Assembly (NCBI GenBank): GCA_026016245.1
Contig: CP061211.1
Span: forward strand, 270,001 to 302,000
Direction of reading: 5' to 3'
Length of the DNA: 32,000 nucleotides
Source of the DNA: Candidatus Pacearchaeota archaeon
GTDB taxonomy: Archaea > Nanobdellota > Nanobdellia > Pacearchaeales > UBA284
This document shows, in pieces, positions 2,307 through 26,989 of this stretch (position 1 is its first letter; the number at the start of each line of letters is the position of its first letter). The translations under genes were made by a program, and so were the position numbers. The notes below the pieces were generated by a model, which saw nothing but the letters and a program-made list of their open reading frames with translations, was not told the origin of the DNA and searched no databases.

Positions 2307-2420
2307 TGGGCCCGATGGGATTTGAACCCATGACCACTGGCTCTCTTAGAGCTATTCAATCCAAGAATGGATTGCGGCCATATAAGACCAGTGCTCTAAA
2401 CCAGGCTGAGCTACGGGCCC
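2307..2420 (-). tRNA. tRNA-Ile (anticodon UAU) with a 38-nt intron at the canonical 37/38 position
   Basis: Reverse complement: GGGCCCG-TA-GCTC-AGCCTGGTTTA-GAGC-A-CTGGT-CTTATA-[intron]-A-GCCAG-TGGTC-ATGGG-TTCAAAT-CCCAT-CGGGCCC-A. The acceptor and T-arm match the usual archaeal tRNA-Ile pattern. The exons total 76 nt including the discriminator. Confidence 0.8.
2343..2380 (-). other. tRNA intron (bulge-helix-bulge-like)
   Basis: Intron sequence is TGGCCG-CAATCCA-TTCT-TGGATTG-AATAGCTC-TAAG-AG. Anticodon-loop CTTA can pair with intron TAAG as a 4-bp central helix. Three-nt bulges (TA|T and AG|A) flank it and carry both splice sites. There is also an internal 7-bp hairpin, CAATCCA/TGGATTG. Confidence 0.7.
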
Positions 2421-2447: not shown

Positions 2448-3611
2448 TTAAATTTTCTTTTTCTGGAATGAGAAAGGAATAAGAAGAAAGGACCCAATAA
2501 CACCAAAAATAATAGCAAGATAAAGGTTAGGGACAAAAAACAAGAAAAGCATGAACAAGGCTAGGCTGGTATGAATGGTTATTTCGCGAACTACTATTAC
2601 TTCAGCAATATGTTTTCTTTTTGCCATGTCATAATTTATAGCATCAAAAGCTGATCCTCCTGCTGATGCTGGTCCAACTGCTCCAAAGAAAATATTTATA
2701 CCAAGAACCCCAACAAATGTTGTAATAAATAGCCTGACAAACCAGCCTAGAGAAGAAAGCATAGCTCCTATTCTTAACACAGCACCTTTATCATATTTAT
2801 CTGCTAATCTTCCAACAAAAAAAGTAGATGCTATTGCAACAACCAAACCTGCAGAAGTTAGAGTACCAACACCAACATAGCCTTTTAGTATTAAAAACAT
2901 AATTATAATCCATGCTATAAACGCACACCTAAATGAGGCCTCACTAATAAAACCTGTTAAGCTAATTCCTGCTTTCTTCATTACTTTTCCAACTTTCTTG
3001 ATGGAAAATTCCCTACGAACATAAATTTCTTTTGACATAAATAATGGTATCGTGGAAATAAAAAGCAGGATAGAAACAAATATAAAAAGAGGATTAAAAC
3101 CTAAGCTGACAAGGATAAAACCTCCAATAACAGGGCCTATCGCAGCAAGAATTAAGGAAATAATAGCATAACCACTTATCTGTTCTGCTCTAAGTTTTCT
3201 TGAACTAAACTCATAAAAATCTATATGGAAATTCATCCAAAATAAAGAGCCATGAATTCCAGAAAGTATTGGAGCTAAAAAGAATATCCAATCTAATGAA
3301 TTTGATGTTAAAAATTGTAATAAAATGAAATAACCTATCAAGAAAGGCATTGAAATAAGCATTCCATGTTTAATTCCTGTCTTAGTAGATAACTTGGCTG
3401 AGAAAAATACTGTTAAAGCAAAAGAAATAGAAACAAGAGCATAAAAAAGAAAAATATACCTTAATTCAAAATTTATTTGGAAGAGATAAATAGGAATAAA
3501 AATAGCTATTAAAGCCAAAGCAAAAGTTTTTCCAGCAATTGTAATATAAATCTCACTAAGTTCCTTGTTTAGAAGATAATGAAATATACTATGATGATGA
3601 GTGTGTGGCAT
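2448..3611 (-). CDS. MFS-type transporter (multi-pass membrane protein)
   Basis: About 11-12 hydrophobic segments are visible. The loop motif VGRLADKYDKG resembles MFS motif A (G-x-L-x-D-[RK]-x-G-[RK]). Confidence 0.7.
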   Translation of the reverse strand: MPHTHHHSIFHYLLNKELSEIYITIAGKTFALALIAIFIPIYLFQINFELRYIFLFYALVSISFALTVFFSAKLSTKTGIKHGMLISMPFLIGYFILLQFLTSNSLDWIFFLAPILSGIHGSLFWMNFHIDFYEFSSRKLRAEQISGYAIISLILAAIGPVIGGFILVSLGFNPLFIFVSILLFISTIPLFMSKEIYVRREFSIKKVGKVMKKAGISLTGFISEASFRCAFIAWIIIMFLILKGYVGVGTLTSAGLVVAIASTFFVGRLADKYDKGAVLRIGAMLSSLGWFVRLFITTFVGVLGINIFFGAVGPASAGGSAFDAINYDMAKRKHIAEVIVVREITIHTSLALFMLFLFFVPNLYLAIIFGVIGSFLLIPFSFQKKKI

Positions 3612-3677
3612 CTTAATTTCCTCTTTTTAAAAATAATAACAAGAAGATTTAATAATGTTTCTTTCTTTTTGCTTTTC

Positions 3678-4865
3678 ATGTTAATAGGAATAGTTGGAAA
3701 ACCTAATGTCGGTAAAAGTACTTTTTTCAAAGCATCTACTCTGGCAGAAGTAGCAATAGCAAGTTATCCTTTTACAACTATTAAAGCTAATGAAGGAGTT
3801 GGTTTTATAAAAGTAAAATGTCCAGAAATAGAAAAAAAATTGAAATGTAAGCCAAATCATGGTTTCTGTATCAGTGGATGGCGTTTTATACCAATAAAGC
3901 TCCTTGATGTCGCAGGACTTGTTCCAGGAGCACATGCTGGAAAAGGTTTGGGCAATAAATTCCTTGATGATTTAAGGCAGGCTGATGCCCTTATACATGT
4001 TATTGATGTAAGTGGAACAACAAATGAGGAAGGAAAACTAACAAAAGATTATGATCCAAGTAAAGATATAAAATTTCTTCAAGAAGAGATAGATAAATGG
4101 TTTTATGGAATTATTGGAGAGGACTGGAAACTTCTTGTTAGAAAAATACAAGTAACAGATGTAAAACCTTTAGAAGAGCTTGCAAGAAAATTTTCAGGCC
4201 TGAAAATCACAGAAGAGATGATTAAAGAGGCAATAAAGAACTGTGCTCTCAAAGAAGAATTTGTTTCTTGGAATGATGAGCAGCTTTTTAGTTTTGTTCA
4301 AGAGCTTAGAAAGTTAAGCAAGCCAATGATAATAGCAGCTAACAAGTGTGATATGCCACAAGCAAAGGAAAATTTAAAAAAACTTCAAGAGGAATTTCCT
4401 GAAATGATTATAGTGTCATGTTCTGCAGAAAGTGAACTTGCATTGAGAGAGGCTGCCCGTGATAGTAAAATAGATTATGTTCCAGGAAGTAATGAATTTG
4501 CAATGCATGATGATAAGTTGAGTGAGAAACAAAAAAAAGGATTAGAGTTTGTTAAAGATAAAATTTTGGAAATTTATAATTCAACTGGAGTACAGAGATG
4601 TCTTAATAAAGCTATATTTTCTCTCCTAAAATATATTGTGGTTTATCCAGTAGAAAATGAAAATCATTTCACTGATGGAAAAAATAATGTCTTGCCAGAT
4701 GCATTTCTTCTGCCTCCAAATTCTAGTGCTTTGGATCTTGCTTATGTAATCCATACCGATATAGGCAATGCTTTTATAGCAGCAATAGATGCCAGAACTC
4801 ATAAAAGATTAGCAAGGGATTATGAGTTAAAAGAGGGAGATATTATAAGAATTATGACAAAGTAA
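3678..4865 (+). CDS. Obg/YchF-related GTP-binding protein with C-terminal TGS-like domain
   Basis: P-loop is right at the N-terminus (MLIGIVGKPNVGKSTFF). Other G motifs are YPFTTI (G2), LLDVAGLV (G3) and AANKCD (G4). The C-terminus ends ...YELKEGDIIRIMTK. The track ORF starts at 3579, but the ATG at 3678 places the P-loop at the usual position and removes overlap with the divergent gene. Confidence 0.8.
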   Translation: MLIGIVGKPNVGKSTFFKASTLAEVAIASYPFTTIKANEGVGFIKVKCPEIEKKLKCKPNHGFCISGWRFIPIKLLDVAGLVPGAHAGKGLGNKFLDDLRQADALIHVIDVSGTTNEEGKLTKDYDPSKDIKFLQEEIDKWFYGIIGEDWKLLVRKIQVTDVKPLEELARKFSGLKITEEMIKEAIKNCALKEEFVSWNDEQLFSFVQELRKLSKPMIIAANKCDMPQAKENLKKLQEEFPEMIIVSCSAESELALREAARDSKIDYVPGSNEFAMHDDKLSEKQKKGLEFVKDKILEIYNSTGVQRCLNKAIFSLLKYIVVYPVENENHFTDGKNNVLPDAFLLPPNSSALDLAYVIHTDIGNAFIAAIDARTHKRLARDYELKEGDIIRIMTK

Positions 4866-5557: not shown

Positions 5558-6001
5558 ATGATAAAATACAAACTCGCTACAGTAAAAGAGGCTTCTGGAA
5601 TTGCAAAGTTACTTCAAAAAAAGTATGGAAGATATTACAGACCAACAAAGTTTACACCGCAATTTGTTAAGGAAAGACTGAAAAGAAAAGAGGTATTCTA
5701 TGTGGTCACTATCGAGGACAAGAAAATTGTAGGAACTATAAGAGCAACTAAAGTAGATATTGATTTAGTAGAATTTAGACATGAAGTTTTTTCTGACTTA
5801 AAGATAGGAAAGGGACTAATAAAAAAGATGCTTTCAATCTTGAAGAAGAAACGTATGCGAAAAGTTGTTGCTAGAACCATCTCAACAGACAGACTTAACA
5901 ATAGAGTTTACAGAGGTTTGAGATTCAGGAAAGAAGGTTACTTTAAGGATCATTATAGAAAAGGAACGCACATAATCCAGTATGCAAGATTTTTAAGATA
6001 A
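5558..6001 (+). CDS. GNAT-family N-acetyltransferase (putative)
   Basis: 147 aa with a motif-A-like stretch, LKIGKGLIKKML, followed by ...RLNNRVYRGLRFRKEGY, a typical GNAT C-terminal pattern. A TATA-like TTTTTAAAG lies about 26 nt upstream of the ATG. Confidence 0.5.
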   Translation: MIKYKLATVKEASGIAKLLQKKYGRYYRPTKFTPQFVKERLKRKEVFYVVTIEDKKIVGTIRATKVDIDLVEFRHEVFSDLKIGKGLIKKMLSILKKKRMRKVVARTISTDRLNNRVYRGLRFRKEGYFKDHYRKGTHIIQYARFLR

Positions 6002-10409: not shown

Positions 10410-11036
10410 ATGGTAAAAATTAATTTTGAATTGAGAAATCCTAGTTATTATTACATTAGTCTTACCAATTATATTGAAAATCAAATTGATAAGGTTTTAA
10501 CTAAATTAAGACAGCAGGATAAAATTAAGGGATTAGAAAAAGAAGTAGAAAAACAAAAAAAAGAGGCTGAGATTTCTTTGGACGTGGCTCTTAGAGAAGA
10601 ACGAGAAAAAAGAAAAATTCTTCAAGAAAAGTTAATAGTGGAAGCACAATTAGATAAGTATTGTAATGGTGATTCTTATATAAAAAAGATATTACCAAAA
10701 TCAAGAAAAGAGATTAAAATATTATCAGAATCTATCCCCTCAGAAAGAGAAAAGCTCCCTCGCGTTAAAATTAGTTCAAAACATCCAAGAAGTGAGGAAT
10801 ATTTAAGATTTATCAAGAAATTAGAAGGAATAAAATATATTACAGAGATTGTAGATGGAGAGGCAAGAGAAGCAAAAAAATCTAGAATTAGAAGAATAAC
10901 TGAAAAAGAAATTTTATTTATTCATGTTGATAATAATTGTCGTGGTTATCGTATTTCAGTTAAGACTACTGCTGAGAATATTAGACAGCAGCATCATATT
11001 GTAGCTTTAATAGAAGAATATTTTATTAGACCCTAG
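10410..11036 (+). CDS. Hypothetical Lys/Glu-rich coiled-coil protein
   Basis: A 208-aa ORF with a TATA-like box at the right distance. No recognisable catalytic motif. The central segment (EKEVEKQKKEAEISLDVALREEREKRKILQEKL) looks coiled-coil. Confidence 0.4.
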   Translation: MVKINFELRNPSYYYISLTNYIENQIDKVLTKLRQQDKIKGLEKEVEKQKKEAEISLDVALREEREKRKILQEKLIVEAQLDKYCNGDSYIKKILPKSRKEIKILSESIPSEREKLPRVKISSKHPRSEEYLRFIKKLEGIKYITEIVDGEAREAKKSRIRRITEKEILFIHVDNNCRGYRISVKTTAENIRQQHHIVALIEEYFIRP

Positions 11037-11892
11037 AAATAACAAATCTTGATCCTGCAAAAGCTGATATTACTGCTGTTATCAAAAGATTTCCTACTTG
11101 AGTTTTAAAAATAGGTTCAGATAATGGCTGGCCTGCTCTGTCTGCAAATTTCTGAACAGCTGCTTTTATCTCATCCTCGTTCAACGTGATTTTTGTTTCT
11201 TGTATTGTTCCTTCTCTTGTTATCTTAATAGAAAGATTAGCACCATCACATTGTATTAGAGAAACACCATCATCTTTAACAAGAGAATTTAATTTTCCTA
11301 AATCTATTCCTGTGATTGCTTCATATTTTTCTTCTGGAGGGGGAGGAGGAACAGGAGCTGGAGGTGCTAGGGCAGGAGCTTCTGGGACTTCTGGAGCTTC
11401 GGGTGTAGGAAACTGCACTGTTGGTGGTGCCATAGCCTCTTCTTCAGGAGGCCTAGCAGGAGATCTTGGTTCAGGCAGAGGATATTCTTTTTCTGGTTTT
11501 GGTGCTTTTGGCAATATAGGCAAGGGTCTCTTATAAACTGGGGCCACTTCTGTTGGGGGAGGTGTTGGTTTTGGCGCTGCTTCAACTATTTCTTCCATTT
11601 TCTCAGGCTCTACTTTTTCTTCTTCTAATGTAAGAGGTTTTAATTTTTCTCTCATTTTCCTGCCTTTCATTATGCCTAGTCTTAATTTTTTCTCAACTAC
11701 TGCAACTTCCTTTTCTGCTTTCTCCTTTTTCCCTATTTTTTTCTCTTCTATAATTTGTTTTTCTTTAGCAATAAGAAGCTGTTTCATAAAAGAGCTAAGA
11801 AATTCTCTTTCTCTAGCACTTTTTGCTTTCTCGGCAGCAGTTTCTACAGCTTTTATTTCAGATTTTATAGTTTTTGCTTTCTTTCTAGCCAT
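11026..11892 (-). CDS. Hypothetical protein: basic coiled-coil N-terminus, Pro-rich linker, and a C-terminal domain resembling the N-terminal domain of FlaI/PilB/VirB11-type secretion ATPases
   Basis: The last ~90 aa (LNSLVKDDGVSLIQCDGANLSIKITREGTIQETKITLNEDEIKAAVQKFADRAGQPLSEPIFKTQVGNLLITAVISAFAGSRFVISRV) follow the pattern found just before the Walker A core in these ATPases: (D..V.(D/E)I.(N/C)G...V......T...F..EEL...(I/V)..(L/I)A.R.G..I....P.........R..A.......G..F.IRK). The ORF stops there, so there is no ATPase core. Confidence 0.5.
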   Translation of the reverse strand: MARKKAKTIKSEIKAVETAAEKAKSAREREFLSSFMKQLLIAKEKQIIEEKKIGKKEKAEKEVAVVEKKLRLGIMKGRKMREKLKPLTLEEEKVEPEKMEEIVEAAPKPTPPPTEVAPVYKRPLPILPKAPKPEKEYPLPEPRSPARPPEEEAMAPPTVQFPTPEAPEVPEAPALAPPAPVPPPPPEEKYEAITGIDLGKLNSLVKDDGVSLIQCDGANLSIKITREGTIQETKITLNEDEIKAAVQKFADRAGQPLSEPIFKTQVGNLLITAVISAFAGSRFVISRV

Positions 11893-12338: not shown

Positions 12339-12361
12339 TCTTTAACATTTTTATCTTGTAT

Positions 12362-12445
12362 GCGGGAGTGTCGGAGTGGTCAAACGAGCAGGACTTAAGA
12401 TCCTGTGGGTTAGTCCCTGCGCAGGTTCGAATCCTGTCTCCCGCA
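12362..12445 (+). tRNA. tRNA-Leu (anticodon UAA), class II with long variable arm
   Basis: GCGGGAG-TG-TCGGAGTGGTCAAACGAG-CAGGA-CTTAAGA-TCCTG-TGGGTTAGTCCCTGC-GCAGG-TTCGAAT-CCTGT-CTCCCGC-A. The acceptor stem is perfect, the anticodon loop CT-TAA-GA gives UAA, and the long variable arm is typical of Leu. Confidence 0.9.
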
Positions 12446-12454
12446 TCAGCAAGC

Positions 12455-12483: not shown

Positions 12484-12747
12484 GGGTAGGTTAGGCTGGC
12501 ACGCTAGCCCTGTGCCGTTTGTAAATGGGCTTTATGACAAGCTGCAAGAGGAGGCGTTATATGCTTGTTGGGGAGTCCTGACTTGGACGTTGAGGTCTTG
12601 TCCTGCTTGATCTTGCCCTAGCAAACCGGGTCAGTTCCGGAAGGAGGCAGCCCTAAGTTAGAGTTAAGATGCTTGTAGGGTTGCAAGGCTGAGGAAGAGT
12701 TAGGGTAGCTTTCTAGTAAGTATAGAAGCAAATCCTCGAACCTGCCC
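12484..12747 (+). ncRNA. Signal recognition particle RNA (7S/SRP RNA)
   Basis: Contains the near-universal helix-8 motif GGGTCAGTTCCGGAAGGAGGCAGCC (compare GGUCAGGUCCGGAAGGAAGCAGCC). The 5' end reads GGGTAGGTTAGGCTGG, an Alu-domain-like start. 5' GGGTAGG pairs with 3' CCTGCCC, which is followed by TTTT. The region is much more GC-rich than its flanks. Ends are approximate, within a few nt. Confidence 0.8.
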
Positions 12748-12755
12748 TTTTAAAA

Positions 12756-13475
12756 TTATTTTAAAACTCCTCTAACATAACCAAGATTCTCTTTTTTTAA
12801 ACCAAGTGCTTCTTTTAACCCCTTATATTCAAAATTAAACATTTTTTTGATAAATTCTGGAAAAAGATCATTTGATATCCTCACTTTATATTCTGTATAA
12901 TGAGATAAATAAATATGTGCTGTTGTTTGTCCAATTGCATATTTAGAAGCAATTTCTAAACTTTTTCTTGCCTTTTCTTTTCCAAACTCTTTCAGTCTAG
13001 AATTTATGAAGGGAGTTTGAATAATTCTTTCGTGTAAATCCTTTTTAAAATTTAAATCTTTTTTATAGAATTCTTCCATGACGTTATATAATTTAATAAA
13101 ATCTGAATCTTCATATAGTTCTGAAATAAAACAAACATCAAATTCACAGCCTCCCCTTTTTATTTTTCTTAAAGTCCTTTCCATTTCTCCTTTTAATCTT
13201 CTTAATTTCTTTTCTGCTTCTTCAGAACATAAATCTTGAAATGCCACTATATTATGAACATAAATTTTATCCCATGGAATAAGCAATATTTTTTTTGCAT
13301 ACTGAAGCAGATTTATGGTTATATCTCTTATATTTTTTCTTGAATAGTATCTTGAACCAAAACTGATGCCAGCAAAACAGCTCAAGGTTTTTGGCTCATA
13401 TAAAAATTTTTTGCCAAGTCCATATGTTTCTAATATCTCTAACTTTCTAATGGGTTTTATATTTTTAATCATCAT
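12756..13475 (-). CDS. Cyclodipeptide synthase (CDPS)-like protein (putative, divergent)
   Basis: 239 aa. AGISFGSRYYSRKNIRDITINLLQYA parallels my recollection of AlbC, IGISAGNSYFSQKNTVMLLQWA. That alignment places Ser38 at the AlbC Ser37 acyl-enzyme position. It also has a basic helix (EKKLRRLKGEMERTLRKIKR), an ISEL...F...F segment, and SKYAIGQ where CDPSs have Y-x-x-x-E (Tyr179 conserved, Glu replaced by Gln183). The alignment was done by eye only. Confidence 0.5.
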   Translation of the reverse strand: MMIKNIKPIRKLEILETYGLGKKFLYEPKTLSCFAGISFGSRYYSRKNIRDITINLLQYAKKILLIPWDKIYVHNIVAFQDLCSEEAEKKLRRLKGEMERTLRKIKRGGCEFDVCFISELYEDSDFIKLYNVMEEFYKKDLNFKKDLHERIIQTPFINSRLKEFGKEKARKSLEIASKYAIGQTTAHIYLSHYTEYKVRISNDLFPEFIKKMFNFEYKGLKEALGLKKENLGYVRGVLK

Positions 13476-14860
13476 TTTAATTTTTTATATACCAAGGATA
13501 AAAATTCATCAAAAATTTTTTTATACCTTGGATGTTTTTTGATGAATTTAGAAATTCTCTTTTTATATTCTTCAGAGAAATAAAAAGTCCTTGACATCTC
13601 TCCTTGTATTTCTTTTAATTCGTTACCGCTAAAACAGGGATGGTTGAAAACTAAGTGATTTACATCATACTTTGACTTATCCTTTTCAATTAAAAATCCT
13701 TTTTCTCTTATTATTTTGTGATCCAATGTTCCTGGAAAAGGAGTATAAATTGGAAAGGAAGCTATATGAATATTATAATAAGGCAGTCTATTCATGGTTT
13801 CTTTTATCTGCTCTCTAGTTTCCTTAGGCCATCCAATAATTAAGAAAGTTTCACTAAGAATTCCTATTTCTGACGAATAGTTCAAAATTTCTTGTATTTT
13901 ATTTGAAGGACATAATTTTTTTGTTTCTTTCTTGATCCATGGGGGTTGTAGTATATTCTCTAATCCCCAACTTATCTTTACGCAACCCGCTTGCTTCATC
14001 TTTTTTAATAAACCATAACTTATGTTTCTAAACCCAGAAAGAATAGTCCAATAAATATTGAGATTTTCTTGGATTAAACTATCACACAATTCTTCTACTT
14101 TTTTAGGATTTAGAGTCATATTTAAATCTGTAAAGAAGATATAATTTATTCCAAAATTTTCTTTTAGATTTTTAAGTTGCCTTGTTATTGTCTCTGGTTT
14201 TCTATAAATGATTTTTCTACCTAAGACATTTGGGGAAGCACAAAAACTACAATTAAAAGTGCATCCCCTAGAGTATTCTAAAAAAGCTGTTTTTCTCTTT
14301 TTTGTTGGTGGATAAGACAAATAAGTAGATTTTTGTTTGAAGATCTTCTCTGTTCTAAATGGGTCTGGTAATTTATCTAAATTTTCTATCCTTTGCCTTC
14401 TTGGATTAACAACAATCCCTTCCCCTAAAAAAGCAATACCTTTTATCTTTTCATAATCTTTATTTTTTTCAATAGATGTTAATAATTCTCTGAATGTTTC
14501 TTCACCCTCCCCAAGAATAGCAAAATCAAACCCTTCTTTGATAATAGAAGGCTCTGCTGAGGGATGGTAGCCTCCAACGATAGATATTAGATTGGATTTT
14601 ATTTTTTTTAATTCTTTATTAAATTTTAGGTAAAAATCAATTCTATTTGTTGTACTTGAATATAAAATAATATTTGGATTAAAAGCAATTATTTCTTCCA
14701 TATCTTTTGTGTCTTTTGGAATGAATAAATCAACTTCATGTCCTTGACCTTGGGCTACAGCTAAAATACATTCTAGACCTAAAGGCTCATCTAAACCCCT
14801 AATTACTTCTTCAATTGTTTCTATATCCTCATGAATTTTGTAAACTCCAGCAACTTTCAT
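13472..14860 (-). CDS. B12-binding-domain radical SAM enzyme (class B-like)
   Basis: CxxxCxxC cluster motif in YSRGCTFNCSFCAS. The N-terminal ~130 aa is Rossmann-like, as in the cobalamin-binding domain of this family (...ILYSSTT...SIVGGYHPS...DFAILGEGEETF). Its TGA overlaps the downstream ATG (ATGA, 13472-13475). Confidence 0.85.
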   Translation of the reverse strand: MKVAGVYKIHEDIETIEEVIRGLDEPLGLECILAVAQGQGHEVDLFIPKDTKDMEEIIAFNPNIILYSSTTNRIDFYLKFNKELKKIKSNLISIVGGYHPSAEPSIIKEGFDFAILGEGEETFRELLTSIEKNKDYEKIKGIAFLGEGIVVNPRRQRIENLDKLPDPFRTEKIFKQKSTYLSYPPTKKRKTAFLEYSRGCTFNCSFCASPNVLGRKIIYRKPETITRQLKNLKENFGINYIFFTDLNMTLNPKKVEELCDSLIQENLNIYWTILSGFRNISYGLLKKMKQAGCVKISWGLENILQPPWIKKETKKLCPSNKIQEILNYSSEIGILSETFLIIGWPKETREQIKETMNRLPYYNIHIASFPIYTPFPGTLDHKIIREKGFLIEKDKSKYDVNHLVFNHPCFSGNELKEIQGEMSRTFYFSEEYKKRISKFIKKHPRYKKIFDEFLSLVYKKLK

Positions 14861-14900
14861 TTTATCTACTTCTTAGTGATATTTGTTTTTATTTTATTGC

Positions 14901-14916
14901 TCTCCAATATTGGAGA
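14901..14916. promoter_or_regulatory. Perfect 16-bp palindrome between divergent promoters (candidate operator)
   Basis: TCTCCAATATTGGAGA is its own reverse complement. It lies in the 89-bp gap between the rSAM start (14860, minus) and the TrmB-like start (14950, plus), flanked by A/T-rich TATA-like elements on both sides. Confidence 0.4.
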
Positions 14917-14920
14917 AAAA

Positions 14921-14928
14921 TTTAAAAA
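14921..14928 (+). promoter_or_regulatory. TATA-like box for the TrmB-like regulator
   Basis: TTTAAAAA is centred about 26 nt upstream of the ATG at 14950. Confidence 0.45.
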
Positions 14929-14949
14929 CTAGGAGAAGATTAAAGAAAT

Positions 14950-15711
14950 ATGGAAGAATTTATTAAAGCCCTAATGAAAACAGGACTAACAAAAGCTGAA
15001 TCAAAAGTTTATTTTTACTTAGTTGGTGTTTCTCAGTCAACTAGTGGAGATGTCATAAAAAATACGGGACTGCAAAGCTCAACAGTATATCATGTGGTCA
15101 ACACCTTAATAGATAAGGGGCTTGTTTCTTACACATTAAAAAATAACATAAAATACTTTCAAGTGACTGGTTTAAGTAATTTGATAAATTATTTAGATGG
15201 TCTAAAAGAAGAGATAAAAAGCTCTAAGAAAAAATTGAATAGATTATTTGCTGAAATTAAAAAATCTGAAAAAAAGGAAATTTACGAAGTAAAGGTCTTT
15301 GAAGGATGGAATGGAGTATGGAATGCATTTGAAGAATGTTTAGAAAAAACTAATAAAAAAGAACCTATTTTGATATATACCCTTAGCAAATATGTGGGGG
15401 CTGATCCAAATATGGCGAAGGCTTTAATAAATAGAATAAGAAATAAGAGATTAAAAAGAAAACTTTACGAGAAAATTATTATTAATGAATCTGAAAGAAA
15501 AACCCTTGGCAGAGACCATGAAAAATTGCCTTATACTCAAATAAAATATTTGCCTGAAAATTTATCAAATCCAGCTATAGTCCACATTTATAGTGATAGG
15601 GTTTTAATTGTGATTTCATCTAAAAAACCTATTGCAACTATGATAAAAGATAGGTTTGTTGTTGAGAGTTTTAGAAATAACTTTAAATTATTATGGAAAA
15701 TAGCTAAATAA
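14950..15711 (+). CDS. TrmB-family transcriptional regulator (winged HTH N-terminus plus C-terminal effector-like domain)
   Basis: The N-terminus LMKTGLTKAESKVYFYLVGVSQSTSGDVIKNTGLQSSTVYHVVNTLIDKGLVSY matches the TrmB HTH pattern (L..LGL...E..VY..L...G..TA.EIA...G+.R..VY..L..L..KGLV). A paralogue tail is present at 3-383. Confidence 0.75.
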   Translation: MEEFIKALMKTGLTKAESKVYFYLVGVSQSTSGDVIKNTGLQSSTVYHVVNTLIDKGLVSYTLKNNIKYFQVTGLSNLINYLDGLKEEIKSSKKKLNRLFAEIKKSEKKEIYEVKVFEGWNGVWNAFEECLEKTNKKEPILIYTLSKYVGADPNMAKALINRIRNKRLKRKLYEKIIINESERKTLGRDHEKLPYTQIKYLPENLSNPAIVHIYSDRVLIVISSKKPIATMIKDRFVVESFRNNFKLLWKIAK

Positions 15712-15787: not shown

Positions 15788-16333
15788 ATGGATAAAAAGC
15801 GAAGTAAGATGAATAAAAAAGCTCAATTTTTCATTATTTTTGCAGTAATTCTTGGGATAATAATTCTAAGCCTGGCAACAATATTCAATACAATAATAAA
15901 GACTGGAAGAGAAGAAACAGCTCCTAAGAAATTTGCTCTGATGTGTAAAAATTACAAAGAGGAGGTTTTCAGAGTCAGTGAACATGCAATAAACACAAGC
16001 AACAAGAGTGGGGAAGCTGGCTTGATTCTTGATTTCACTAAAGAATTTATGAGTTATGCAGAAAAAACTGATCCTAATTTTGGCCTTGTTTATGTTTATG
16101 GTAATAATAATTATGTAAATATTTTGGATGCAACAGATTATGAAATTGTTGTTGAGGATTATGATAATTGGCAGTCATTAAATGGTTATAGATTTATAGA
16201 GATTATTGGACCAGTAGATAAAATAATTTTATCAAGTGAGAAAGTTAATAAACAATATGAAATTGACAATAATGAAAAGTTTTGGTTTATAGCCTTGACA
16301 GAAAAAGATGGTGAAGAATATGTTTGTGAATAA
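15788..16333 (+). CDS. Archaeal type IV pilin-like protein (class III signal peptide), paralogue 1
   Basis: MNKKA|QFFIIFAVILGIIILSLATIF has a basic residue plus Ala at -2/-1 followed by a hydrophobic helix. The alternative start at 15809 gives a short leader. The C-terminus ...EEYVCE is shared with paralogue 3. TATA TTTATAAA lies at 15751-15758. Confidence 0.7.
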   Translation: MDKKRSKMNKKAQFFIIFAVILGIIILSLATIFNTIIKTGREETAPKKFALMCKNYKEEVFRVSEHAINTSNKSGEAGLILDFTKEFMSYAEKTDPNFGLVYVYGNNNYVNILDATDYEIVVEDYDNWQSLNGYRFIEIIGPVDKIILSSEKVNKQYEIDNNEKFWFIALTEKDGEEYVCE

Positions 16334-16841
16334 AAAAGAAAATAAGAAAGGCATTAGTATCCTTGTTTCTTATGTTCTGCTCATCACCTTAGCTATAGCT
16401 CTTGCAGCAGCCACATATACATTCTTGAGAACCTATGCAGAAAAACCACTCCCAGAAGAAGGCTGTCCTGAAGGAACTAACATAGTTATTGAAAATTATA
16501 CTTGTGAAGATGATGGAATCAATATAACAATAAAAAATCGTGGTTTGTTTAATGTTACAGGAGTTTTTATTAAAATTGGTAATGAAACAGACAGTGAATT
16601 TTTATATGATTTTTTAGAGATAAGTCCTGACTGTACAGGCAAACCAAGATGTGTTATTTGTGACAGAGATCCTTGTTTTGCCCCTAATGAAGAATTTTAT
16701 CCAGAAAGTCCTTTTAGTTATTCATCTTTTAATAAAATAACAAGAATAGTGGTTATTCCATATAGGGCAGGAGAGCCTTATGCCACTCTATGCAAGAATG
16801 CTATCGCTAGTCTAGATATCCCAGAGGGAGCATGTGAATAA
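16320..16841 (+). CDS. Archaeal type IV pilin-like protein, paralogue 2 (Cys-rich)
   Basis: MFVNKKENKKG|ISILVSYVLLITLAIALAAA. The start is taken at the ATG at 16320, whereas the track starts at 16308, and it overlaps the upstream gene. The C-terminus is ...PEGACE and there are multiple Cys residues in the globular part. Confidence 0.7.
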   Translation: MFVNKKENKKGISILVSYVLLITLAIALAAATYTFLRTYAEKPLPEEGCPEGTNIVIENYTCEDDGINITIKNRGLFNVTGVFIKIGNETDSEFLYDFLEISPDCTGKPRCVICDRDPCFAPNEEFYPESPFSYSSFNKITRIVVIPYRAGEPYATLCKNAIASLDIPEGACE

Positions 16842-16881
16842 TTTGGATAAAATATTTAAATCCAAAAATCAACTAAGTAAT

Positions 16882-17322
16882 ATGAGGAAAAAAGATAAAA
16901 AAGGAATTTCTCCAGTTGTTGCAACTGTCCTGCTTATAGTTGTCGCAATAGCACTTTTTTTGCTTATTTTTATGTGGCTTCGTGGTTTTCAAAAGGAAGC
17001 TATAACAAAAGATGGCACACCAATAGAATTAGTATGTAATGAAATCAATTTTGATATTTCTTATAATAGTGTTATAGAAACATTACAAGTAGTTAATATG
17101 GGGGATTATCCTATTCATAGAGCAGAGATTTATCGTGTGACTGAAACAAGTACAACTAAATTGGGGGATATTTCTGGAATAACTCCTGGTACAACTGGAA
17201 TAATAAGTGGAATAGCATGTATGGAACAAATAAAAGTTATTCCTGTTTTGCTTGGAATAACTAAATCTGGAGCTCAAGAAGAATATGTTTGTGAAAACCA
17301 AGCACAAACCATTTCATGTTAA
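16882..17322 (+). CDS. Archaeal type IV pilin-like protein, paralogue 3
   Basis: MRKKDKKG|ISPVVATVLLIVVAIALFLLIF is the classic archaeal pilin/archaellin-type N-terminus. The start is moved from 16834 to the ATG at 16882. The C-terminus is ...EEYVCENQAQTISC. Confidence 0.75.
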   Translation: MRKKDKKGISPVVATVLLIVVAIALFLLIFMWLRGFQKEAITKDGTPIELVCNEINFDISYNSVIETLQVVNMGDYPIHRAEIYRVTETSTTKLGDISGITPGTTGIISGIACMEQIKVIPVLLGITKSGAQEEYVCENQAQTISC

Positions 17323-17347
17323 AAAATTATACTAAAAGAGGTAAAAA

Positions 17348-17830
17348 ATGAAAAATAAAAAAGGAATTGAACCTGTGATTGCAACAGTTTTGCTTATAGT
17401 GATCACAATTGTTGTTGTGGCTTTAGTTATTGCTTTTGTAGTGCCTTTTGTACAAGAACAAATGAAGGGAGCAGAATTGTGTTATGGGGCTAGAGTTGAA
17501 ATCAAAGAAGCTTGTTTCAATTACACAGATAGTCATTTAGTAATAAGGATTGGTCGTGGAGCAGAAGATTTTGAACTTGTAGGTATTGTAGTACAAGCCT
17601 CAGTAGCAGAAGTAACCAAAACCCATATTCTGAAAGAAGATACAGATTATGGAGATGGGCTACCAAAAGTTTTAGAGGAGATCCAATATAAAATACCTTT
17701 AACTGCATTTGATATTGCAGACAATATAAATATAACTTCAGTTGCAATTTCTCCAGTAGTTAAGAGTGGAGTTACAGAAAAAACTTGTGAGATTACTTCA
17801 CAGATGACTATCAGTATATGTCCTGAGTAA
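17348..17830 (+). CDS. Archaeal type IV pilin-like protein, paralogue 4
   Basis: MKNKKG|IEPVIATVLLIVITIVVVALVIAF. A GAGGT Shine-Dalgarno-like motif lies about 8 nt upstream. The C-terminus is ...EKTCEITSQMTISICPE. Confidence 0.8.
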   Translation: MKNKKGIEPVIATVLLIVITIVVVALVIAFVVPFVQEQMKGAELCYGARVEIKEACFNYTDSHLVIRIGRGAEDFELVGIVVQASVAEVTKTHILKEDTDYGDGLPKVLEEIQYKIPLTAFDIADNINITSVAISPVVKSGVTEKTCEITSQMTISICPE

Positions 17831-17837
17831 ATAGAAA

Positions 17838-18350
17838 ATGAAAAAACAAGCAGTAGTTTGGGTTTCTACAGTTCTTTATATTTTAATTAGTCTGGCTATC
17901 CTTGGTATTGTGTTAGCAGCTGTACAGCCAAGGATTAAAGCAGCAAGAGATAAGGCAGCTATAGACCAGACAGTAAACATGTTGAATGAGCTTGATCAAA
18001 AGATAATTGAAGTGGATAGTTCAGCAGAAGGAAATGTCAGATCAATAAGCTTGCAGCTGAAAAGAGGTATTCTTATAATTGATAAGGATGAAGATGAAAT
18101 AAAATGGACTCTTGAAGACTCCTCCTATAAATATAGTGAGCCAGGAACAACAATCATCATTGGTAGAATCAAAGCTCTCACAGAAGAAGTCCCAGGAGGT
18201 TTTAATGTTACTTTAACTTTGGATTATCAAAATAATCTAAACATAACTTCTAGCTTGGTATTGCAGCCTGCTGAAATTCCATACAAAGTTTTTATGAAAA
18301 ATGAGGGTTTGTATGAAAAACTTAATCAGATTAAAATTTATTCTACTTAA
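17838..18350 (+). CDS. Archaeal type IV pilin-like protein, paralogue 5 (no Cys)
   Basis: MKKQA|VVWVSTVLYILISLAILGIVLAAV is a class-III-like signal. It is the last gene of the five-gene tandem. Confidence 0.65.
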   Translation: MKKQAVVWVSTVLYILISLAILGIVLAAVQPRIKAARDKAAIDQTVNMLNELDQKIIEVDSSAEGNVRSISLQLKRGILIIDKDEDEIKWTLEDSSYKYSEPGTTIIIGRIKALTEEVPGGFNVTLTLDYQNNLNITSSLVLQPAEIPYKVFMKNEGLYEKLNQIKIYST

Positions 18351-22382: not shown

Positions 22383-22823
22383 ATGAGAAAGAAAAGAATA
22401 CCAAAACAATTAGGAATAGTAAGAGCAGTAATAGCATCTGGTCCAGTAATTCTAAAAAACAAAAAGATATTAGTTGTGTTGGATGATAAAGATCCTTTTT
22501 TAAAATTCCCTGGTGGAAGAATTCATTACAAAGAAGATTTGAAAAAAACTTGTTTGAGAAGAACCAAAGAGGAAATTGGAGTCAATATTGAGATTATTAG
22601 GCCATTAGATCCAATGCTTTTATGGAAAAAACCACACACAGGAGAAAAAATTCCTGTTGTTCTTATACATTGGCTTTCAAAACTTAAACCAAAACAGATT
22701 CCAAGAAAAGGTAAGCTTCCTCGAAAAATCTTTTGGATTGATTCTAAATATAAAGGTCATAAGTTAGCACCAAATGTTCAATATTTTCTAAAAAACCTGA
22801 AAAAAGAGAAGAAAATTAACTGA
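22383..22823 (+). CDS. Nudix hydrolase (variant Nudix box)
   Basis: FPGGRIHYKEDLKKTCLRRTKEEIGV follows G-x5-E-x7-R-x-x2-E-E-x-G, with Arg in place of the usual RE Glu. The start is taken at the ATG at 22383, one nt after the upstream TAG. The track ORF begins at a TTG at 22371. Confidence 0.65.
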   Translation: MRKKRIPKQLGIVRAVIASGPVILKNKKILVVLDDKDPFLKFPGGRIHYKEDLKKTCLRRTKEEIGVNIEIIRPLDPMLLWKKPHTGEKIPVVLIHWLSKLKPKQIPRKGKLPRKIFWIDSKYKGHKLAPNVQYFLKNLKKEKKIN

Positions 22824-24168
22824 GATATTTAACCATATAATGTCCTTCTAATTTATAACCAAGCTTTCTGTAATATTCACGAACACCTACCCCACTAATA
22901 ATAAAAATTTTCTTGTAGCTATATTCAGAAGCAATTTTTTCAGCTTCATCCATCAACCACTTTCCTAAACCGGTGTGTTGAGCTTTTCCTCTTGCTCTTT
23001 TACCAATTTTAAGAGCAGGGCCATAAACATGAAGCTCTCTAACAAGCAATATTTCTGATTTATCGGGAATTCTCAATCTAATGAGGCCAAAAATAATATC
23101 ATCTTTATTTATTATTTCAATAAAAAGTTCTTTTCCTTTAGACGCCTTATATTCTATCTTATTTAATTTAAGATCTTTTTTAATTTCTTTTTTCTTAAGT
23201 AAAGCAAAACCTATTTCTCTACATCTAATACAATTACATTTCAAACCTAGAACTTCCATTTTGTCATGGATAACTTTTCTAAGATCAATTCTTATTGTTC
23301 CTGCAACAAGAAAATCAGGAGGAATTTCTCTCATCACTCTCATAATTCTACAATATCTTGGAACAATTTGTTTGAATTCTATAATTAATTTGATTAATTG
23401 TTCTTTTGTGTAAGGTTTATATTTTCCTCTCTCATATAATCTTTCAAGCTCTGCTCCTTTGATAACTTGTGTTGGATAAATTTTTAATTGGTCAGGTTTA
23501 AAATCAGAATTTAAGAATAATTCTCTAAACATTCTGATATCTTTTTTAAAATTACTTCCAGGCAAACCAGGCATTATATGATAACCAATTTTAAAGCCAG
23601 CATTTTTCAGTCTGCGAGTTGCCTCAATTACATCTCTAACTGTATGGCCTCTGCAAACTTTCTTATAGATTTTATCATCTGGAGCCTGAACACCAAGCTC
23701 AACTCTTGTACAGCCAAATTCTAACATTTTCTCTATATCTTTTTTAGAACAAAAATCTGGCCTTGTTTCTATGCACAAAGCAACGCACCTATGCTCTGCT
23801 TTCTCATTAAGCTTTTTTGCTTGCTCTAGTGTTTTACTTATTTTGCCATTAAAAGCATCATAACATGCTTTGATGAAATTATATTGGTAGTTTTTAGGAT
23901 AAGCAGGAAATGTTCCACCCATTATAATAAGTTCAATCTTGTCAGTAGGATGTTTCATTGCTTGAAATGCTTTTAATCTAGCAAGAGTCTGTTTGTGAGG
24001 ATCATAATTTAACAACATAGCGCACATAATTGCTGGACTTTTGGGGGTATAAGATTGAGGAACAGCCAGAGTAGGACAGTAAAGACAGGTTCCGTGAGGG
24101 CATTTTCTAGGTTTAATAACTACTGCTAATGGTGTTACTCCAGATATTGTTTTTGTTGGTTTTCTCAC
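22816..24168 (-). CDS. elp3: Elp3-like radical SAM / GNAT protein (tRNA wobble-uridine cm5U synthase homologue)
   Basis: SGVTPLAVVIKPRKCPHGTCLYCP is the Elp3-type Cys cluster. It is followed by a TIM-barrel radical-SAM body and a C-terminal GNAT region (AQHTGLGKWLMDEAEKIA...ISGVGVREYYRKLGY). The start appears to be GTG. Confidence 0.85.
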   Translation of the reverse strand: MRKPTKTISGVTPLAVVIKPRKCPHGTCLYCPTLAVPQSYTPKSPAIMCAMLLNYDPHKQTLARLKAFQAMKHPTDKIELIIMGGTFPAYPKNYQYNFIKACYDAFNGKISKTLEQAKKLNEKAEHRCVALCIETRPDFCSKKDIEKMLEFGCTRVELGVQAPDDKIYKKVCRGHTVRDVIEATRRLKNAGFKIGYHIMPGLPGSNFKKDIRMFRELFLNSDFKPDQLKIYPTQVIKGAELERLYERGKYKPYTKEQLIKLIIEFKQIVPRYCRIMRVMREIPPDFLVAGTIRIDLRKVIHDKMEVLGLKCNCIRCREIGFALLKKKEIKKDLKLNKIEYKASKGKELFIEIINKDDIIFGLIRLRIPDKSEILLVRELHVYGPALKIGKRARGKAQHTGLGKWLMDEAEKIASEYSYKKIFIISGVGVREYYRKLGYKLEGHYMVKYLS

Positions 24169-24859: not shown

Positions 24860-26989
24860 ATGAAATCAGCAGAGCTCAAGAAGAGATATATAGAATTTTT
24901 CAAAAAGAAAGGACATAAAGAAATTCCTAATGCTAGTCTTATTCCAGAACATGATCCAAGTGTGTTATTCACGACAGCTGGAATGCATCCTCTAGTTCCT
25001 TTCCTTCTTGGACAGAAACATCCACAAGGCAAAAGGTTAGTTAATGCTCAAAAATGTTTAAGAACACAAGATATAGATGAAGTAGGCAATCCAATGCATC
25101 TCTCTTTTTTCGAAATGTTAGGAAACTGGTCATTAGGAGATTATTGGAAAAAGGAAGCAACTGAATACAGTTATGAATTTTTAACAAAAATTCTGAAGAT
25201 TGATCCAGAAAAATTATATATCACATGTTTTGCTGGAGATAAGGATGTTCCTAGAGATGAAGAGACAGCAAAAATCTGGCAATCTTTAGGCATTCCAAGA
25301 GAAAGAATTTACTTTTTGAGCAAGGAAGAAAATTGGTGGGGGCCTGTAGGAGAAACTGGGCCTTGCGGACCTGATACAGAGATGTTTGTTGATACAGGAA
25401 AAAAATCCTGTAGTAAGAATTGCCGTCCAGGATGTCCTTGTGGTAAATATTTTGAAATCTGGAATGATGTTTTTATGCAATACAACAAGACAAAAGTAAA
25501 AGCAATTCTCATCGATGCAATTCATTGTTTGTTTGACGAAAATAGAAAGATAAATAAAGAATTATTAGATTCGTTGATAACTTACGATATGTCTTTAATA
25601 ATTGTTACTAATGCTAATCTCGAAGACAAGAAAAACAAACCTCTTACAGAATTAATAAATAAATTTAAAGAGAAAATAGAAATTTTTACTTGTTTTAATA
25701 ATCCAAGTAAAAAAGATTCCAAATATTTTGAAATGTTATTAAAAGAATATAATCTAAAACCAGACGAAGTTATTTATTTTGATCATTCAACAGACAATAT
25801 AAACTCTGCTAGAAAAATAGGTATTAACTCAAAATTATACAAATCTCCTAAACAAATCAAAAAATTCATAGAAGAAAACCTATATTATTACCAATCACTA
25901 AAACAAAAAAATGTTGATACAGGGATGGGGGTTGAAAGAACAGTTACAATACTTCAGGGGGAAAAATCTGTTTATGAAATTAAAATACTAAAGCCAATAA
26001 TGGATAAAATTAAAGAACTAGCTAAGATAAAAGAGCCAGATGAAAAACAACTAAGAAGTATGAGGATAATTACTGACCATATCAGAGCCTCTGTATTTAT
26101 ACTTGGAGATGAAAATTCTGTTGTTCCTAGCAATGTTGATCAAGGTTATATTTTAAGGAGATTTATCAGAAGAGCTATGAGATATGGAAGGCTTCTAGGA
26201 ATGCAAAATTTTATTCAAGAAATAGCAAAAATTGTTATAAAAATTAACAAAGATTATCCTCTAAAGAAAAAGGAAAAATTTATTTTATCTGAATTAAAAA
26301 AAGATGAGGAAAAATTCAGAAAAACTCTTGAAAAAGGCCTTAATAAATTTAATAGGATGGCGGTAGATAAGAAAATCTCAGGTAAAGAAGCCTTTCTTTT
26401 GTTCCAGTCTTATGGTTTTCCAATAGAAATGACAAAGGAACTAGCAGAAGAAAAAAATATTGAGATTGATGAAAAAGGATTTTATCTTGAATATAAAAAA
26501 CATCAAGAAATATCAAGAGTTGGTGCTGAAAAGAAATTCAAAGGTGGTTTATCAGATGCAAGTTATGAAACAACAAAACTTCATACAGCTGCTCATCTTC
26601 TATTATATGCATTAAGAAAAGCTTTAAATCCAGATATTGTGCAAAAAGGTTCTAATATCACCCCAGAAAGAATAAGGTTTGATTTTAATTTTGACAGAAA
26701 ATTAACAGATGATGAAATAAAGAAAGTAGAGAAAATAGTTAATGATAAAATCAAGCAAGAAATTGAAGTTGTGAGAAAAGAGATGCCTGTTACAGAGGCA
26801 AAAAAAATAGCAAAATCACCTTTTGAATATAAAAGCAAGATTGTTTCTGTTTATATTATTGATGATTGCATTGAAATTTGTATGGGGCCTCATGTTAAAA
26901 ATACAAAAGAGTTAGGAAAGTTTAAAATAACAAAACAAGAGGCTGTTGCGGGCGGAGTTAGAAGAATTAGGGCTGTTTTAGAATCTTAA
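24860..26989 (+). CDS. alaS: Alanyl-tRNA synthetase, bacterial-type core, short form without a C-Ala domain, carrying an internal HAD-like insertion
   Basis: The N-terminus (MKSAELKKRYIEFFKKKGHKEIPNASLIPEHDPSVLFTTAGM...FFEMLGNWSLGDYWK...GPCGPDTEMF...FEIWNDVFMQYN...VDTGMGVER) matches the bacterial AlaRS pattern. Editing-domain motifs HTAAHLL (HxxxH) and CMGPH (CxxxH) are present. Confidence 0.9.
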   Translation: MKSAELKKRYIEFFKKKGHKEIPNASLIPEHDPSVLFTTAGMHPLVPFLLGQKHPQGKRLVNAQKCLRTQDIDEVGNPMHLSFFEMLGNWSLGDYWKKEATEYSYEFLTKILKIDPEKLYITCFAGDKDVPRDEETAKIWQSLGIPRERIYFLSKEENWWGPVGETGPCGPDTEMFVDTGKKSCSKNCRPGCPCGKYFEIWNDVFMQYNKTKVKAILIDAIHCLFDENRKINKELLDSLITYDMSLIIVTNANLEDKKNKPLTELINKFKEKIEIFTCFNNPSKKDSKYFEMLLKEYNLKPDEVIYFDHSTDNINSARKIGINSKLYKSPKQIKKFIEENLYYYQSLKQKNVDTGMGVERTVTILQGEKSVYEIKILKPIMDKIKELAKIKEPDEKQLRSMRIITDHIRASVFILGDENSVVPSNVDQGYILRRFIRRAMRYGRLLGMQNFIQEIAKIVIKINKDYPLKKKEKFILSELKKDEEKFRKTLEKGLNKFNRMAVDKKISGKEAFLLFQSYGFPIEMTKELAEEKNIEIDEKGFYLEYKKHQEISRVGAEKKFKGGLSDASYETTKLHTAAHLLLYALRKALNPDIVQKGSNITPERIRFDFNFDRKLTDDEIKKVEKIVNDKIKQEIEVVRKEMPVTEAKKIAKSPFEYKSKIVSVYIIDDCIEICMGPHVKNTKELGKFKITKQEAVAGGVRRIRAVLES
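25496..25894 (+). other. In-frame HAD-superfamily-like domain inserted in AlaRS (about residues 213-345)
   Basis: KAILIDAIHCLFD is motif-I-like (Asp nucleophile, D+2 position is Ile, as in D-x-Y-G-T-L dehalogenase-type variants). LIIVTNA matches motif II, PSKKDSKYFEMLLKEYNLKPDEVIYFDHSTDNINSARKIGI matches motifs III/IV, partly degenerate. It replaces the short loop that bacterial AlaRS has between FMQ(F/Y)N and the L-P-x-K-x-(V/I)-DTGMG segment. Confidence 0.6.
26966..26984. repeat. Direct repeat copy 1 (ATTAGGGCTGTTTTAGAAT) at the live alaS 3' end
   Basis: A 19/19 identity with 27985-28003. It extends to 23 nt with one mismatch (AAG[A/G]ATTAGGG...). Confidence 0.85.

Follow-up and report, generated by a model that had tools for sequence, protein, structure and literature searches.

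We examined a 32,000-nucleotide stretch of DNA (the window; contig CP061211.1, positions 270,001 to 302,000) from a Candidatus Pacearchaeota metagenome-assembled genome (MAG), where it lies on a 710-kb contig. The window is AT rich, with a GC content of about 0.28 to 0.38. Three of its genes concern us here: one for a protein with the fold of cyclodipeptide synthases (CDPSs), one for a cobalamin-binding radical S-adenosylmethionine (SAM) enzyme, and one, divergent from this pair, for a TrmB-family regulator.

Layout of the locus

The CDPS-fold protein is encoded on the minus strand at 12756..13475, by an open reading frame (ORF) of 239 amino acids; its assignment draws on subthreshold Pfam and TIGRFAM matches, on relatives found with HMMER, on an AlphaFold2 model and on Foldseek comparisons. 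Upstream, on the same strand (13472..14860), lies the gene for a 462-amino-acid class B (cobalamin-binding) radical SAM enzyme, which matches Pfam B12-binding and Radical_SAM above cut-off. The stop codon of the radical SAM gene overlaps the start codon of the 239-amino-acid ORF: positions 13472-13475 read ATGA on the minus strand.

An 89-bp divergent promoter region (14861..14949), delimited on the sequence and by alignment with the corresponding spacers of two metagenome loci, L010 and L013, separates this pair from the regulator gene. The latter, on the plus strand (14950..15711), encodes a 253-amino-acid protein with an N-terminal winged helix recognized by Pfam TrmB, a long helix and a C-terminal domain of about 130 amino acids. 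Within the spacer we find a perfect 16-bp palindrome, TCTCCAATATTGGAGA (14901..14916), which is kept in the orthologous spacers and is the predicted operator of the TrmB-like regulator. It adjoins an A/T tract, TTTTTAAATTTTT (14916..14928, minus strand), which aligns with tracts of L010 and L013 and resembles a TATA box. An earlier note on this DNA, made from the sequence alone, had described the ATGA overlap, the 89-bp gap and the perfect palindrome; all three are present on the sequence at the positions given here.

The 239-amino-acid protein is a CDPS homolog

The same note had seen a CDPS N-terminal signature in the 239-amino-acid protein, and this signature is real. Pfam CDPS (PF16715) matches the protein with an E value of 4.6e-5 (23.7 bits, under the curated cut-off of 27) and TIGR04539 with an E value of 2e-8 (34.1 bits, under the curated cut-off of 45). 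PF16715 is also assigned to the protein in the precomputed Pfam annotation of the sequence collection. As a single sequence, its best match in the PDB is AlbC (E value of 0.012).

A word-indexed search of 5.8 billion clusters with the 239-amino-acid query returned only the query itself, and an 8-sequence profile retrieved 3 proteins only. A full HMMER scan of 1.84 billion representatives recovered 26 relatives, with E values down to 6e-14; one is 47% identical to the window protein and the others are 21 to 30% identical. We built a family alignment (A1) from 27 metagenomic relatives and the protein of locus L002. Individually, 26 of these 28 sequences match Pfam CDPS, and the family profile matches 23 solved CDPS sequences, the best being the putative CDPS of Porphyromonas gingivalis (9gun; E value of 1.3e-35). 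The window protein alone thus matches the CDPS profiles significantly but under their cut-offs, and its family as a whole matches CDPSs strongly.

The fold gives the same answer. AlphaFold2, supplied with a 27-sequence alignment, produced a model of very high confidence (predicted local distance difference test [pLDDT] score, 95.2; predicted template modeling [pTM] score, 0.90). When this model was compared with the PDB by Foldseek, the top 43 matches were all CDPSs, with E values down to 7e-10 and template modeling (TM) scores of 0.6 to 0.8 (up to 0.78-0.84). Tyrosyl-tRNA synthetases follow the CDPSs in the list, and with these class Ic aminoacyl-tRNA synthetases the TM score is only about 0.5; unlike them, the 239-amino-acid protein has no anticodon-binding domain. 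With the CDPSs of P. gingivalis (9gun), Fluoribacter dumoffii (5ocd) and AlbC (3oqv) it shares the fold (TM score, 0.7 to 0.8), about the same length, the Gly-x-Ser nucleophile loop, the equivalent of Tyr178 and the basic helix alpha4. The spacing between the Tyr178 and Tyr202 positions, 22 residues in the window protein, is typical of 9gun.

We conclude that the 239-amino-acid protein is a true CDPS homolog with a CDPS fold, beyond a mere Rossmann fold. By fold and descent it is nearest to the XYP-type enzymes. We nevertheless call it CDPS-like rather than a CDPS, because it falls under the curated cut-offs and departs from CDPSs at two catalytic residues, as described below.

Catalytic residues kept and lost

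We mapped the active site through alignments with AlbC, with the family and with the solved enzymes 9gun, 5ocd and 6ztu. Gly36 (AlbC Gly35) is kept, as is Ser38, which corresponds to the acyl-enzyme nucleophile Ser37: Gly36-Ile37-Ser38 aligns with Gly35-Ile36-Ser37 of AlbC and with the GIS or PIS of the three solved proteins. In the closest relative, P0122, the nucleophile position is a cysteine, and in AlbC the S37C variant works by way of a thioester (PMC3105412). Tyr179, the equivalent of AlbC Tyr178, is also kept, and all the solved CDPSs aligned with the window protein have tyrosine there. The predicted helix spanning residues 84 to 107 carries 10 lysines or arginines, and 6 of the 9 basic positions of the tRNA-binding helix alpha4 of AlbC are still basic.

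Other positions have changed. Gln183 replaces AlbC Glu182, Ser41 replaces Asn40, and Ser201-Asn202 stands at the position of Tyr202-His/Pro203; Ser201 aligns with the tyrosine of the Tyr-Pro motif in 9gun and 5ocd. The earlier note had correctly placed Ser38, Tyr179 and the glutamine at the Glu182 position. It had also expected phenylalanine at two other conserved tyrosine positions, which our alignments do not confirm: Ser201 stands at the Tyr202 position and Ser41 at the Asn40 position.

How unusual are these replacements? The Glu182 position is glutamate in 21 of 26 aligned relatives, and glutamine occurs only in a four-member clade made up of the window protein, P0122, P0124 and the L002 protein. 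This clade is monophyletic with 77% bootstrap support, and both Gln183 and Ser201 are invariant within it. The Tyr202 position varies more widely: among the 26 aligned relatives it is tyrosine in 3, aspartate in 8 ("EIDP" type) and serine in 8. The branch thus mostly lacks Tyr202, yet 26 of its 28 sequences match Pfam CDPS, and by this comparison it may form an uncharacterized third CDPS subfamily.

Published work assigns roles to these positions. Glu182 is the proposed general base for formation of the first peptide bond, that is, of the dipeptidyl-enzyme, and Tyr202 is described as the proton relay for cyclization and as strictly conserved in active CDPSs (PMC5935735). AlbC E182Q makes no cyclodipeptide, yet some acyl-enzyme is formed (PMC3105412). 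In AlbC, Tyr178 and Glu182 superimpose on Tyr151 and Gln155 of Methanocaldococcus jannaschii tyrosyl-tRNA synthetase (TyrRS), the pair that binds the amino group (PMC3105412); Tyr179 and Gln183 of the window protein match this synthetase pair. By the residue map and the mutagenesis taken together, the window protein keeps the residues for aminoacyl-tRNA binding and acyl-enzyme formation and lacks both residues assigned to later steps. The earlier note had called the protein a divergent and possibly mechanistically different member of the family; with Glu182 and Tyr202 both replaced, the case is stronger than was stated there.

A class B radical SAM enzyme with two kinds of partner

The earlier note had read a CxxxCxxC cluster and an N-terminal cobalamin-domain-like region in the 462-amino-acid enzyme, and both Pfam comparisons bear this out: it scores 70 bits against Radical_SAM (PF04055; cut-off, 29.5) and 60.4 bits against B12-binding (PF02310; cut-off, 32.1; residues 25 to 127). 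The cluster motif is C200-x3-C204-x2-C207 (RGCTFNCSFCAS), and CxxxCxxC is invariant in 22 homologs. No NCBIfam equivalog cut-off was reached; the best match, to BchE, scores 149.7 against a cut-off of 481. Relatives in the PDB are weak (AprD4, TokK at 1e-9 and CysS at 9e-7). The enzyme shares its N-terminal B12-binding domain and CxxxCxxC core with class B enzymes such as the methylases TokK and CysS and with BchE and HpnJ, but is only distantly similar to TokK, CysS and BchE. Judged by these profiles, it is a class B enzyme outside every characterized subfamily (BchE, HpnJ, HpnR, PhpK, TokK-like and others).

In a phylogenetic tree, 13 radical SAM sequences, including the CDPS-coupled enzymes, form one group separated from outgroups with 100% bootstrap support. 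Within this group is a clade, likewise supported at 100%, containing enzymes with a different partner. In these loci (L005:5360-7428, L007:5363-7419 and L016:1858-3914; radical SAM enzymes 41 to 48% identical to that of the window), a translationally coupled UbiE/PmtA-like class I methyltransferase and a divergent AsnC/Lrp regulator replace the CDPS and TrmB. We checked this context for P0006, P0008 and P0011. CDPS and methyltransferase are alternative partners of one radical SAM lineage.

We also considered whether a CDPS might be hidden in two ORFs without a Pfam or NCBIfam family, one beside a methyltransferase-coupled radical SAM gene (L005:7847-8449) and one beside a radical SAM gene of the Woesearchaeota type (L002:6736-7764). 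With an hhalign probability of 0.1%, we rejected this idea. The second of these belongs to a conserved ORF of 342 to 345 amino acids that directly follows the radical SAM gene in the Woesearchaeota-type module (L002:6736-7764, L009:8222-9259) and has no Pfam or NCBIfam match; about 3 kb beyond it lie a TyrRS/TrpRS-type gene and a threonyl-tRNA synthetase gene.

The module is conserved, with gene order flipped in some lineages

Does the module occur elsewhere? The related contigs were read over short flanks, and taxonomic labels are at hand for two loci (Pacearchaeota and Woesearchaeota). Contigs from JGI and Logan, together with a MAG of a Candidatus Woesearchaeota archaeon, carry the closest homolog of the radical SAM enzyme (59 to 60% identical) next to a gene for a 251-amino-acid CDPS, in the order CDPS and then radical SAM. 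On a 570-kb metagenome contig (L010), a TrmB-like gene is divergent from a CDPS-like gene (47% identical) followed by a radical SAM gene (48% identical), again with an ATGA overlap. Two further loci (L013 and L014) have the layout of the window, TrmB divergent from radical SAM and then CDPS; the genes overlap in L013. The CDPSs of L013 and L014 are about 25% identical to the window protein and keep the canonical glutamate.

A search for loci with the alignment of the four-sequence clade gave one locus in a genome and two in metagenomes. In all, on contigs of DPANN archaea, a CDPS pairs with an orthologous radical SAM enzyme (44 to 60% identical) in four lineages, where the CDPSs are 25 to 47% identical and the gene order is flipped in some. 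The TrmB orthologs of the window, L010 and L013 are 50% identical over their full length, and their genes diverge from the module. In related genomes, too, the regulator thus accompanies the gene pair and the palindrome; for the pair and the palindrome, the earlier note had proposed to look for such a co-occurrence. The closest kin of the parts are discordant: the window radical SAM enzyme is nearest to the Woesearchaeota type, and the window CDPS-like protein is nearest to that of L010. Together with the flipped gene order, these discordant similarities suggest a shuffling of parts.

More distant CDPS relatives have other surroundings. Some lie beside TrmB-like genes without the radical SAM gene (L012 and L017), and others (L018/19) lie beside an unrelated radical SAM gene. 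The distant relative P0126 is flanked by a resolvase gene and a gene of the AlaE (alanine exporter) family (L020:538-2408), neighbors that hint at mobility and at export of a small product.

The regulator, its predicted operator and the probable promoter

The earlier note's identification of a TrmB-like regulator holds: residues 8 to 69 match Pfam TrmB (PF01978) with 45.6 bits against a cut-off of 25.6. The NCBIfam equivalogs TrmBL1 and TrmB cover residues 2 to 121 and 2 to 148 only, where they score 47 bits (cut-off, 650) and 28 bits (cut-off, 600), respectively. Residues 150 to 253 have no Pfam match and do not show the sugar-binding effector domain of TrmB and TrmBL1. A single-sequence AlphaFold2 model of this protein was poor (pLDDT, 57; below 50 in the C-terminal half), and we did not use it.

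By length, the palindrome is unremarkable. The AT-rich window has 2 perfect palindromes of at least 16 bp against 1.45 expected, a number not beyond chance; the other is an 18-bp palindrome, ATTTTCAGGCCTGAAAAT, at 4190-4207, inside an ORF for an Obg-like GTPase (3579-4865). For the given 89-bp stretch, the chance of such a palindrome is about 0.005. The window has no further exact copy of TCTCCAATATTGGAGA. What makes the palindrome credible is not its length but its conservation in orthologous spacers: L010 has TCTCCAACATTGGAGA at 5912-5927, and L013 has TTTCCATTAATGGAGA at 951-966. At all three loci GAGAGCA follows the palindromic element in the direction of the operon, and a TATA-like A/T tract precedes it, TTTTTAAATTTTT aligning with TTTATAAAA in L010 and with TTTATAA in L013. 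The operator consensus is TCCA-N4-TGGAGAGCA, placed after the TATA-like box; TrmB and the operator are kept together in three lineages.

From this alignment we infer that the A/T tract at 14916-14928 is the TATA-like element of the operon promoter. TrmB-type regulators are known to repress by blocking polymerase recruitment, and those of the Thermococcales, TrmB and TrmBL1, act on the palindromic TGM motif. By analogy, the position of the predicted operator, just downstream of the TATA-like box, suggests repression through blocked polymerase recruitment here too. The window regulator has in common with the Thermococcales proteins the TrmB-type winged helix and a palindromic site next to a TATA-like box. 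It differs from them in being much shorter (253 amino acids), in a C-terminal domain unlike the sugar-binding domain, and in the sequence of its operator. A sigma-70 promoter scan of the window gave nothing above shuffled sequences and is irrelevant for an archaeon.

A proposed pathway and its alternatives

We lean slightly toward the view that the module is a TrmB-repressed operon in which the CDPS-fold enzyme makes an aminoacyl-derived product that the radical SAM enzyme then modifies. With its basic helix alpha4, the 239-amino-acid protein would bind aminoacyl-tRNA, whose aminoacyl group would sit in a pocket formed by Gly36, Tyr179 and Gln183 and would be moved onto Ser38 as an acyl-enzyme. 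A small product derived from this acyl group would then form, with a cyclodipeptide the likeliest. The coupled cobalamin-dependent radical SAM enzyme would act on an unactivated carbon of that product, with methylation the most likely change. Meanwhile, the TrmB-family protein would bind the palindrome downstream of the TATA-like box and repress the operon, and probably its own gene as well, until a ligand at its C-terminal domain ended repression. In favor of this pathway are the homology and fold of the CDPS-like protein, its retained residues for the first half-reaction, the coupling of the two genes and their pairing in four lineages, the conserved regulator and palindrome, the TrmB-like neighbors of more distant CDPS relatives, and the two class B domains of the radical SAM enzyme; the use of aminoacyl-tRNA, the product, the radical SAM reaction and repression are deduced from these. 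The end product would most likely be a radical-modified, probably C-methylated, small molecule derived from aminoacyl-tRNA; it is uncertain because in other loci the partner of orthologous radical SAM enzymes is a SAM methyltransferase and not a CDPS.

Several observations weigh against this pathway. The CDPS-like protein scores under both curated family cut-offs. It has the substitution that abolishes cyclodipeptide synthesis in AlbC E182Q (PMC3105412), and it has serine in place of Tyr202, which is described as needed for cyclization (PMC5935735); as all four members of the clade share both replacements, they are doubtful candidates for canonical CDPS chemistry. The radical SAM enzyme matches no characterized subfamily, and methylation is therefore an expectation rather than a result. 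Since its orthogroup is also paired with a methyltransferase, its substrate need not be the product of a CDPS, and no CDPS lies within 6 kb of the methyltransferase-coupled enzymes, which come from other Pacearchaeota. That one radical SAM lineage has two alternative partners fits poorly with simple tailoring of a CDPS product. Lastly, no B12 uptake or export gene was seen within the window.

Perhaps, then, the 239-amino-acid protein performs only the first half-reaction of a CDPS, acting as an aminoacyl carrier or transferase that makes no diketopiperazine? The amino acid tethered to Ser or Cys would be shown to the radical SAM enzyme or passed to an acceptor other than an amino acid. We regard this as the main rival, though unlikely. 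The residues kept are exactly the acyl-enzyme set (Gly36, Ser38 or the cysteine of P0122, Tyr179 and the basic helix), and those lost are the ones for peptide-bond formation and cyclization (PMC3105412; PMC5935735). In AlbC, the E182Q variant can still become acylated to some extent, with Tyr179 and Gln183 the window protein has the same pair that binds the amino group in TyrRS (PMC3105412), and tight translational coupling with the radical SAM gene suggests a complex. However, the L013-type modules, which have the same radical SAM enzyme and TrmB, contain a CDPS with the canonical glutamate, so the partnership with the radical SAM enzyme predates the glutamine change or is independent of it. 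Many family members without Tyr202 keep Glu182, and Tyr202 may be dispensable in this branch; moreover, a CDPS fold serving as a carrier has no biochemical precedent. Slightly less probable again is the specific proposal that the Gln183/Ser201 clade has given up cyclodipeptides altogether and has become a covalent carrier fed by aminoacyl-tRNA, whose Ser or Cys ester is presented to the cobalamin radical SAM enzyme for C-H functionalization.

The interchangeable partners of the radical SAM orthogroup, CDPS or class I methyltransferase, could also be read in another way: the target of the radical SAM enzyme might be a cellular macromolecule (tRNA or rRNA) or an isoprenoid lipid, to which the partner, whether CDPS-like protein or methyltransferase, would add a second decoration or which it would deliver. 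The unit would then be a modification system rather than a natural-product pathway. The CDPS fold binds tRNA. The radical SAM enzyme has a weak, subthreshold likeness to lipid-acting B12 radical SAM enzymes (HpnJ, HpnR and TIGR04072), and the methyltransferase weakly resembles the phospholipid N-methyltransferase PmtA, also below threshold. These resemblances are, however, far under the curated cut-offs. Each version of the module has a ligand-type regulator of its own (TrmB or AsnC/Lrp), as small-molecule pathways typically do; the patchy distribution is unlike that of a housekeeping modification, and the nucleophile and pocket residues are conserved. We consider a macromolecular or lipid substrate improbable. 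Less probable still, the CDPS-like gene could be a remnant, decaying or catalytically dead, that adjoins the radical SAM gene without joint function. Two catalytic residues are missing, the single sequence falls under the family cut-offs, and only one near-identical sequence turned up in the word search of 5.8 billion clusters. Yet full-length, intact orthologs exist at 25 to 47% identity with 32 invariant columns, Gln183 and Ser201 among them, the fold model is very confident, pairing with the radical SAM gene is kept in four lineages despite changes of order, and the operator is conserved. These features point to selection, and the Gln183 and Ser201 replacements do not look like decay.

Relation to known CDPS systems

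CDPSs are the textbook enzymes that divert charged tRNAs to natural products, and the known examples in the literature we searched are bacterial, with a few eukaryotic ones. In keeping with the earlier note's view that the combination is undescribed, our search of the literature for CDPSs in archaea or DPANN, or in company with radical SAM or B12 enzymes, turned up neither a DPANN CDPS nor a CDPS that has a B12 radical SAM enzyme as its partner. A 2014 review reported that no archaeal CDPS had been found, and it contains the only mention we found of a radical SAM gene near a CDPS, an abbreviation in the legend to a figure that shows uncharacterized clusters as examples (PMC4159871). Two family-wide CDPS surveys from 2018 mention neither radical SAM nor archaea.

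Like the window, known CDPS clusters place candidate tailoring genes and a local regulator next to the synthase. Their tailoring enzymes are cyclodipeptide oxidases, cytochrome P450s, 2-oxoglutarate oxygenases, class I methyltransferases and prenyltransferases, whereas the neighbor in the window is a cobalamin-type radical SAM enzyme. If it tailors a CDPS product, it would add a new class of chemistry to the oxidases, P450s, oxygenases and ordinary methyltransferases known so far. The CDPS family would also reach DPANN archaea, whose genomes are about a megabase or smaller and which are thought to be nearly without secondary metabolism; such organisms presumably must import cobalamin. If the carrier proposal were true, it would amount to a new route, independent of nonribosomal peptide synthetases, from the translation pool to a nonproteinogenic amino acid or signal molecule in ultrasmall symbiotic archaea, switched by a TrmB-type sensor. 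In either case the clade offers a natural test of the roles proposed for Glu182 and Tyr202, both of which it has replaced under selection. With three genes and one 16-bp operator, the system is compact and could reveal how small molecules are made or sensed by such symbionts where they meet their host.

Other features of the window

The CDPS-like gene runs convergent to two RNA genes, a tRNA-Leu(UAA) at 12361-12447 and an archaeal signal recognition particle (SRP) RNA at 12484-12747 (106.6 bits); its stop codon is 8 bp from the end of the SRP RNA. Beyond these is a 288-amino-acid ORF (11026-11892, minus strand) that matches no family and is rich in Pro, Ala and Glu over a long stretch. This ORF and the RNA genes account for a local rise in GC content to 0.37-0.38 at 11 to 13 kb.

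On the other side of the module, 3' of the TrmB-like gene, five small tandem ORFs of 160 to 181 amino acids occupy 15788-18350 (plus strand). Each has an N-terminal hydrophobic segment, and 2 of the 5 contain the pilin-type motif KKGI(S/E)PV(V/I)ATVLL, with one weak match to archaeal Pilin_N (24.3 bits). They have no counterparts beside TrmB in L010.

We also considered the seryl-, alanyl- and leucyl-tRNA synthetases (SerRS, AlaRS and LeuRS) and the tRNA-Leu nearby as parts dedicated to the module. This idea found no support: they are housekeeping-like, and the neighbors vary between loci. Two of the synthetases have possible inserted hydrolase domains. LeuRS (1009 amino acids; 28006-31035, minus strand) has a Ser_hydrolase-family match of 42.5 bits at residues 266 to 425, inserted before the editing domain, and AlaRS (709 amino acids; 24860-26989, plus strand) has a weak HAD_2 match at residues 233 to 324. 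A second radical SAM protein, with Radical_SAM_C and GNAT domains in an Elp3-like architecture, is encoded at 22816-24168 (minus strand) and is unrelated to the module. Finally, a 114-nucleotide Rfam tRNA match (59.6 bits) at 2307-2420 (minus strand), not called by ARAGORN, is probably an intron-containing archaeal tRNA.

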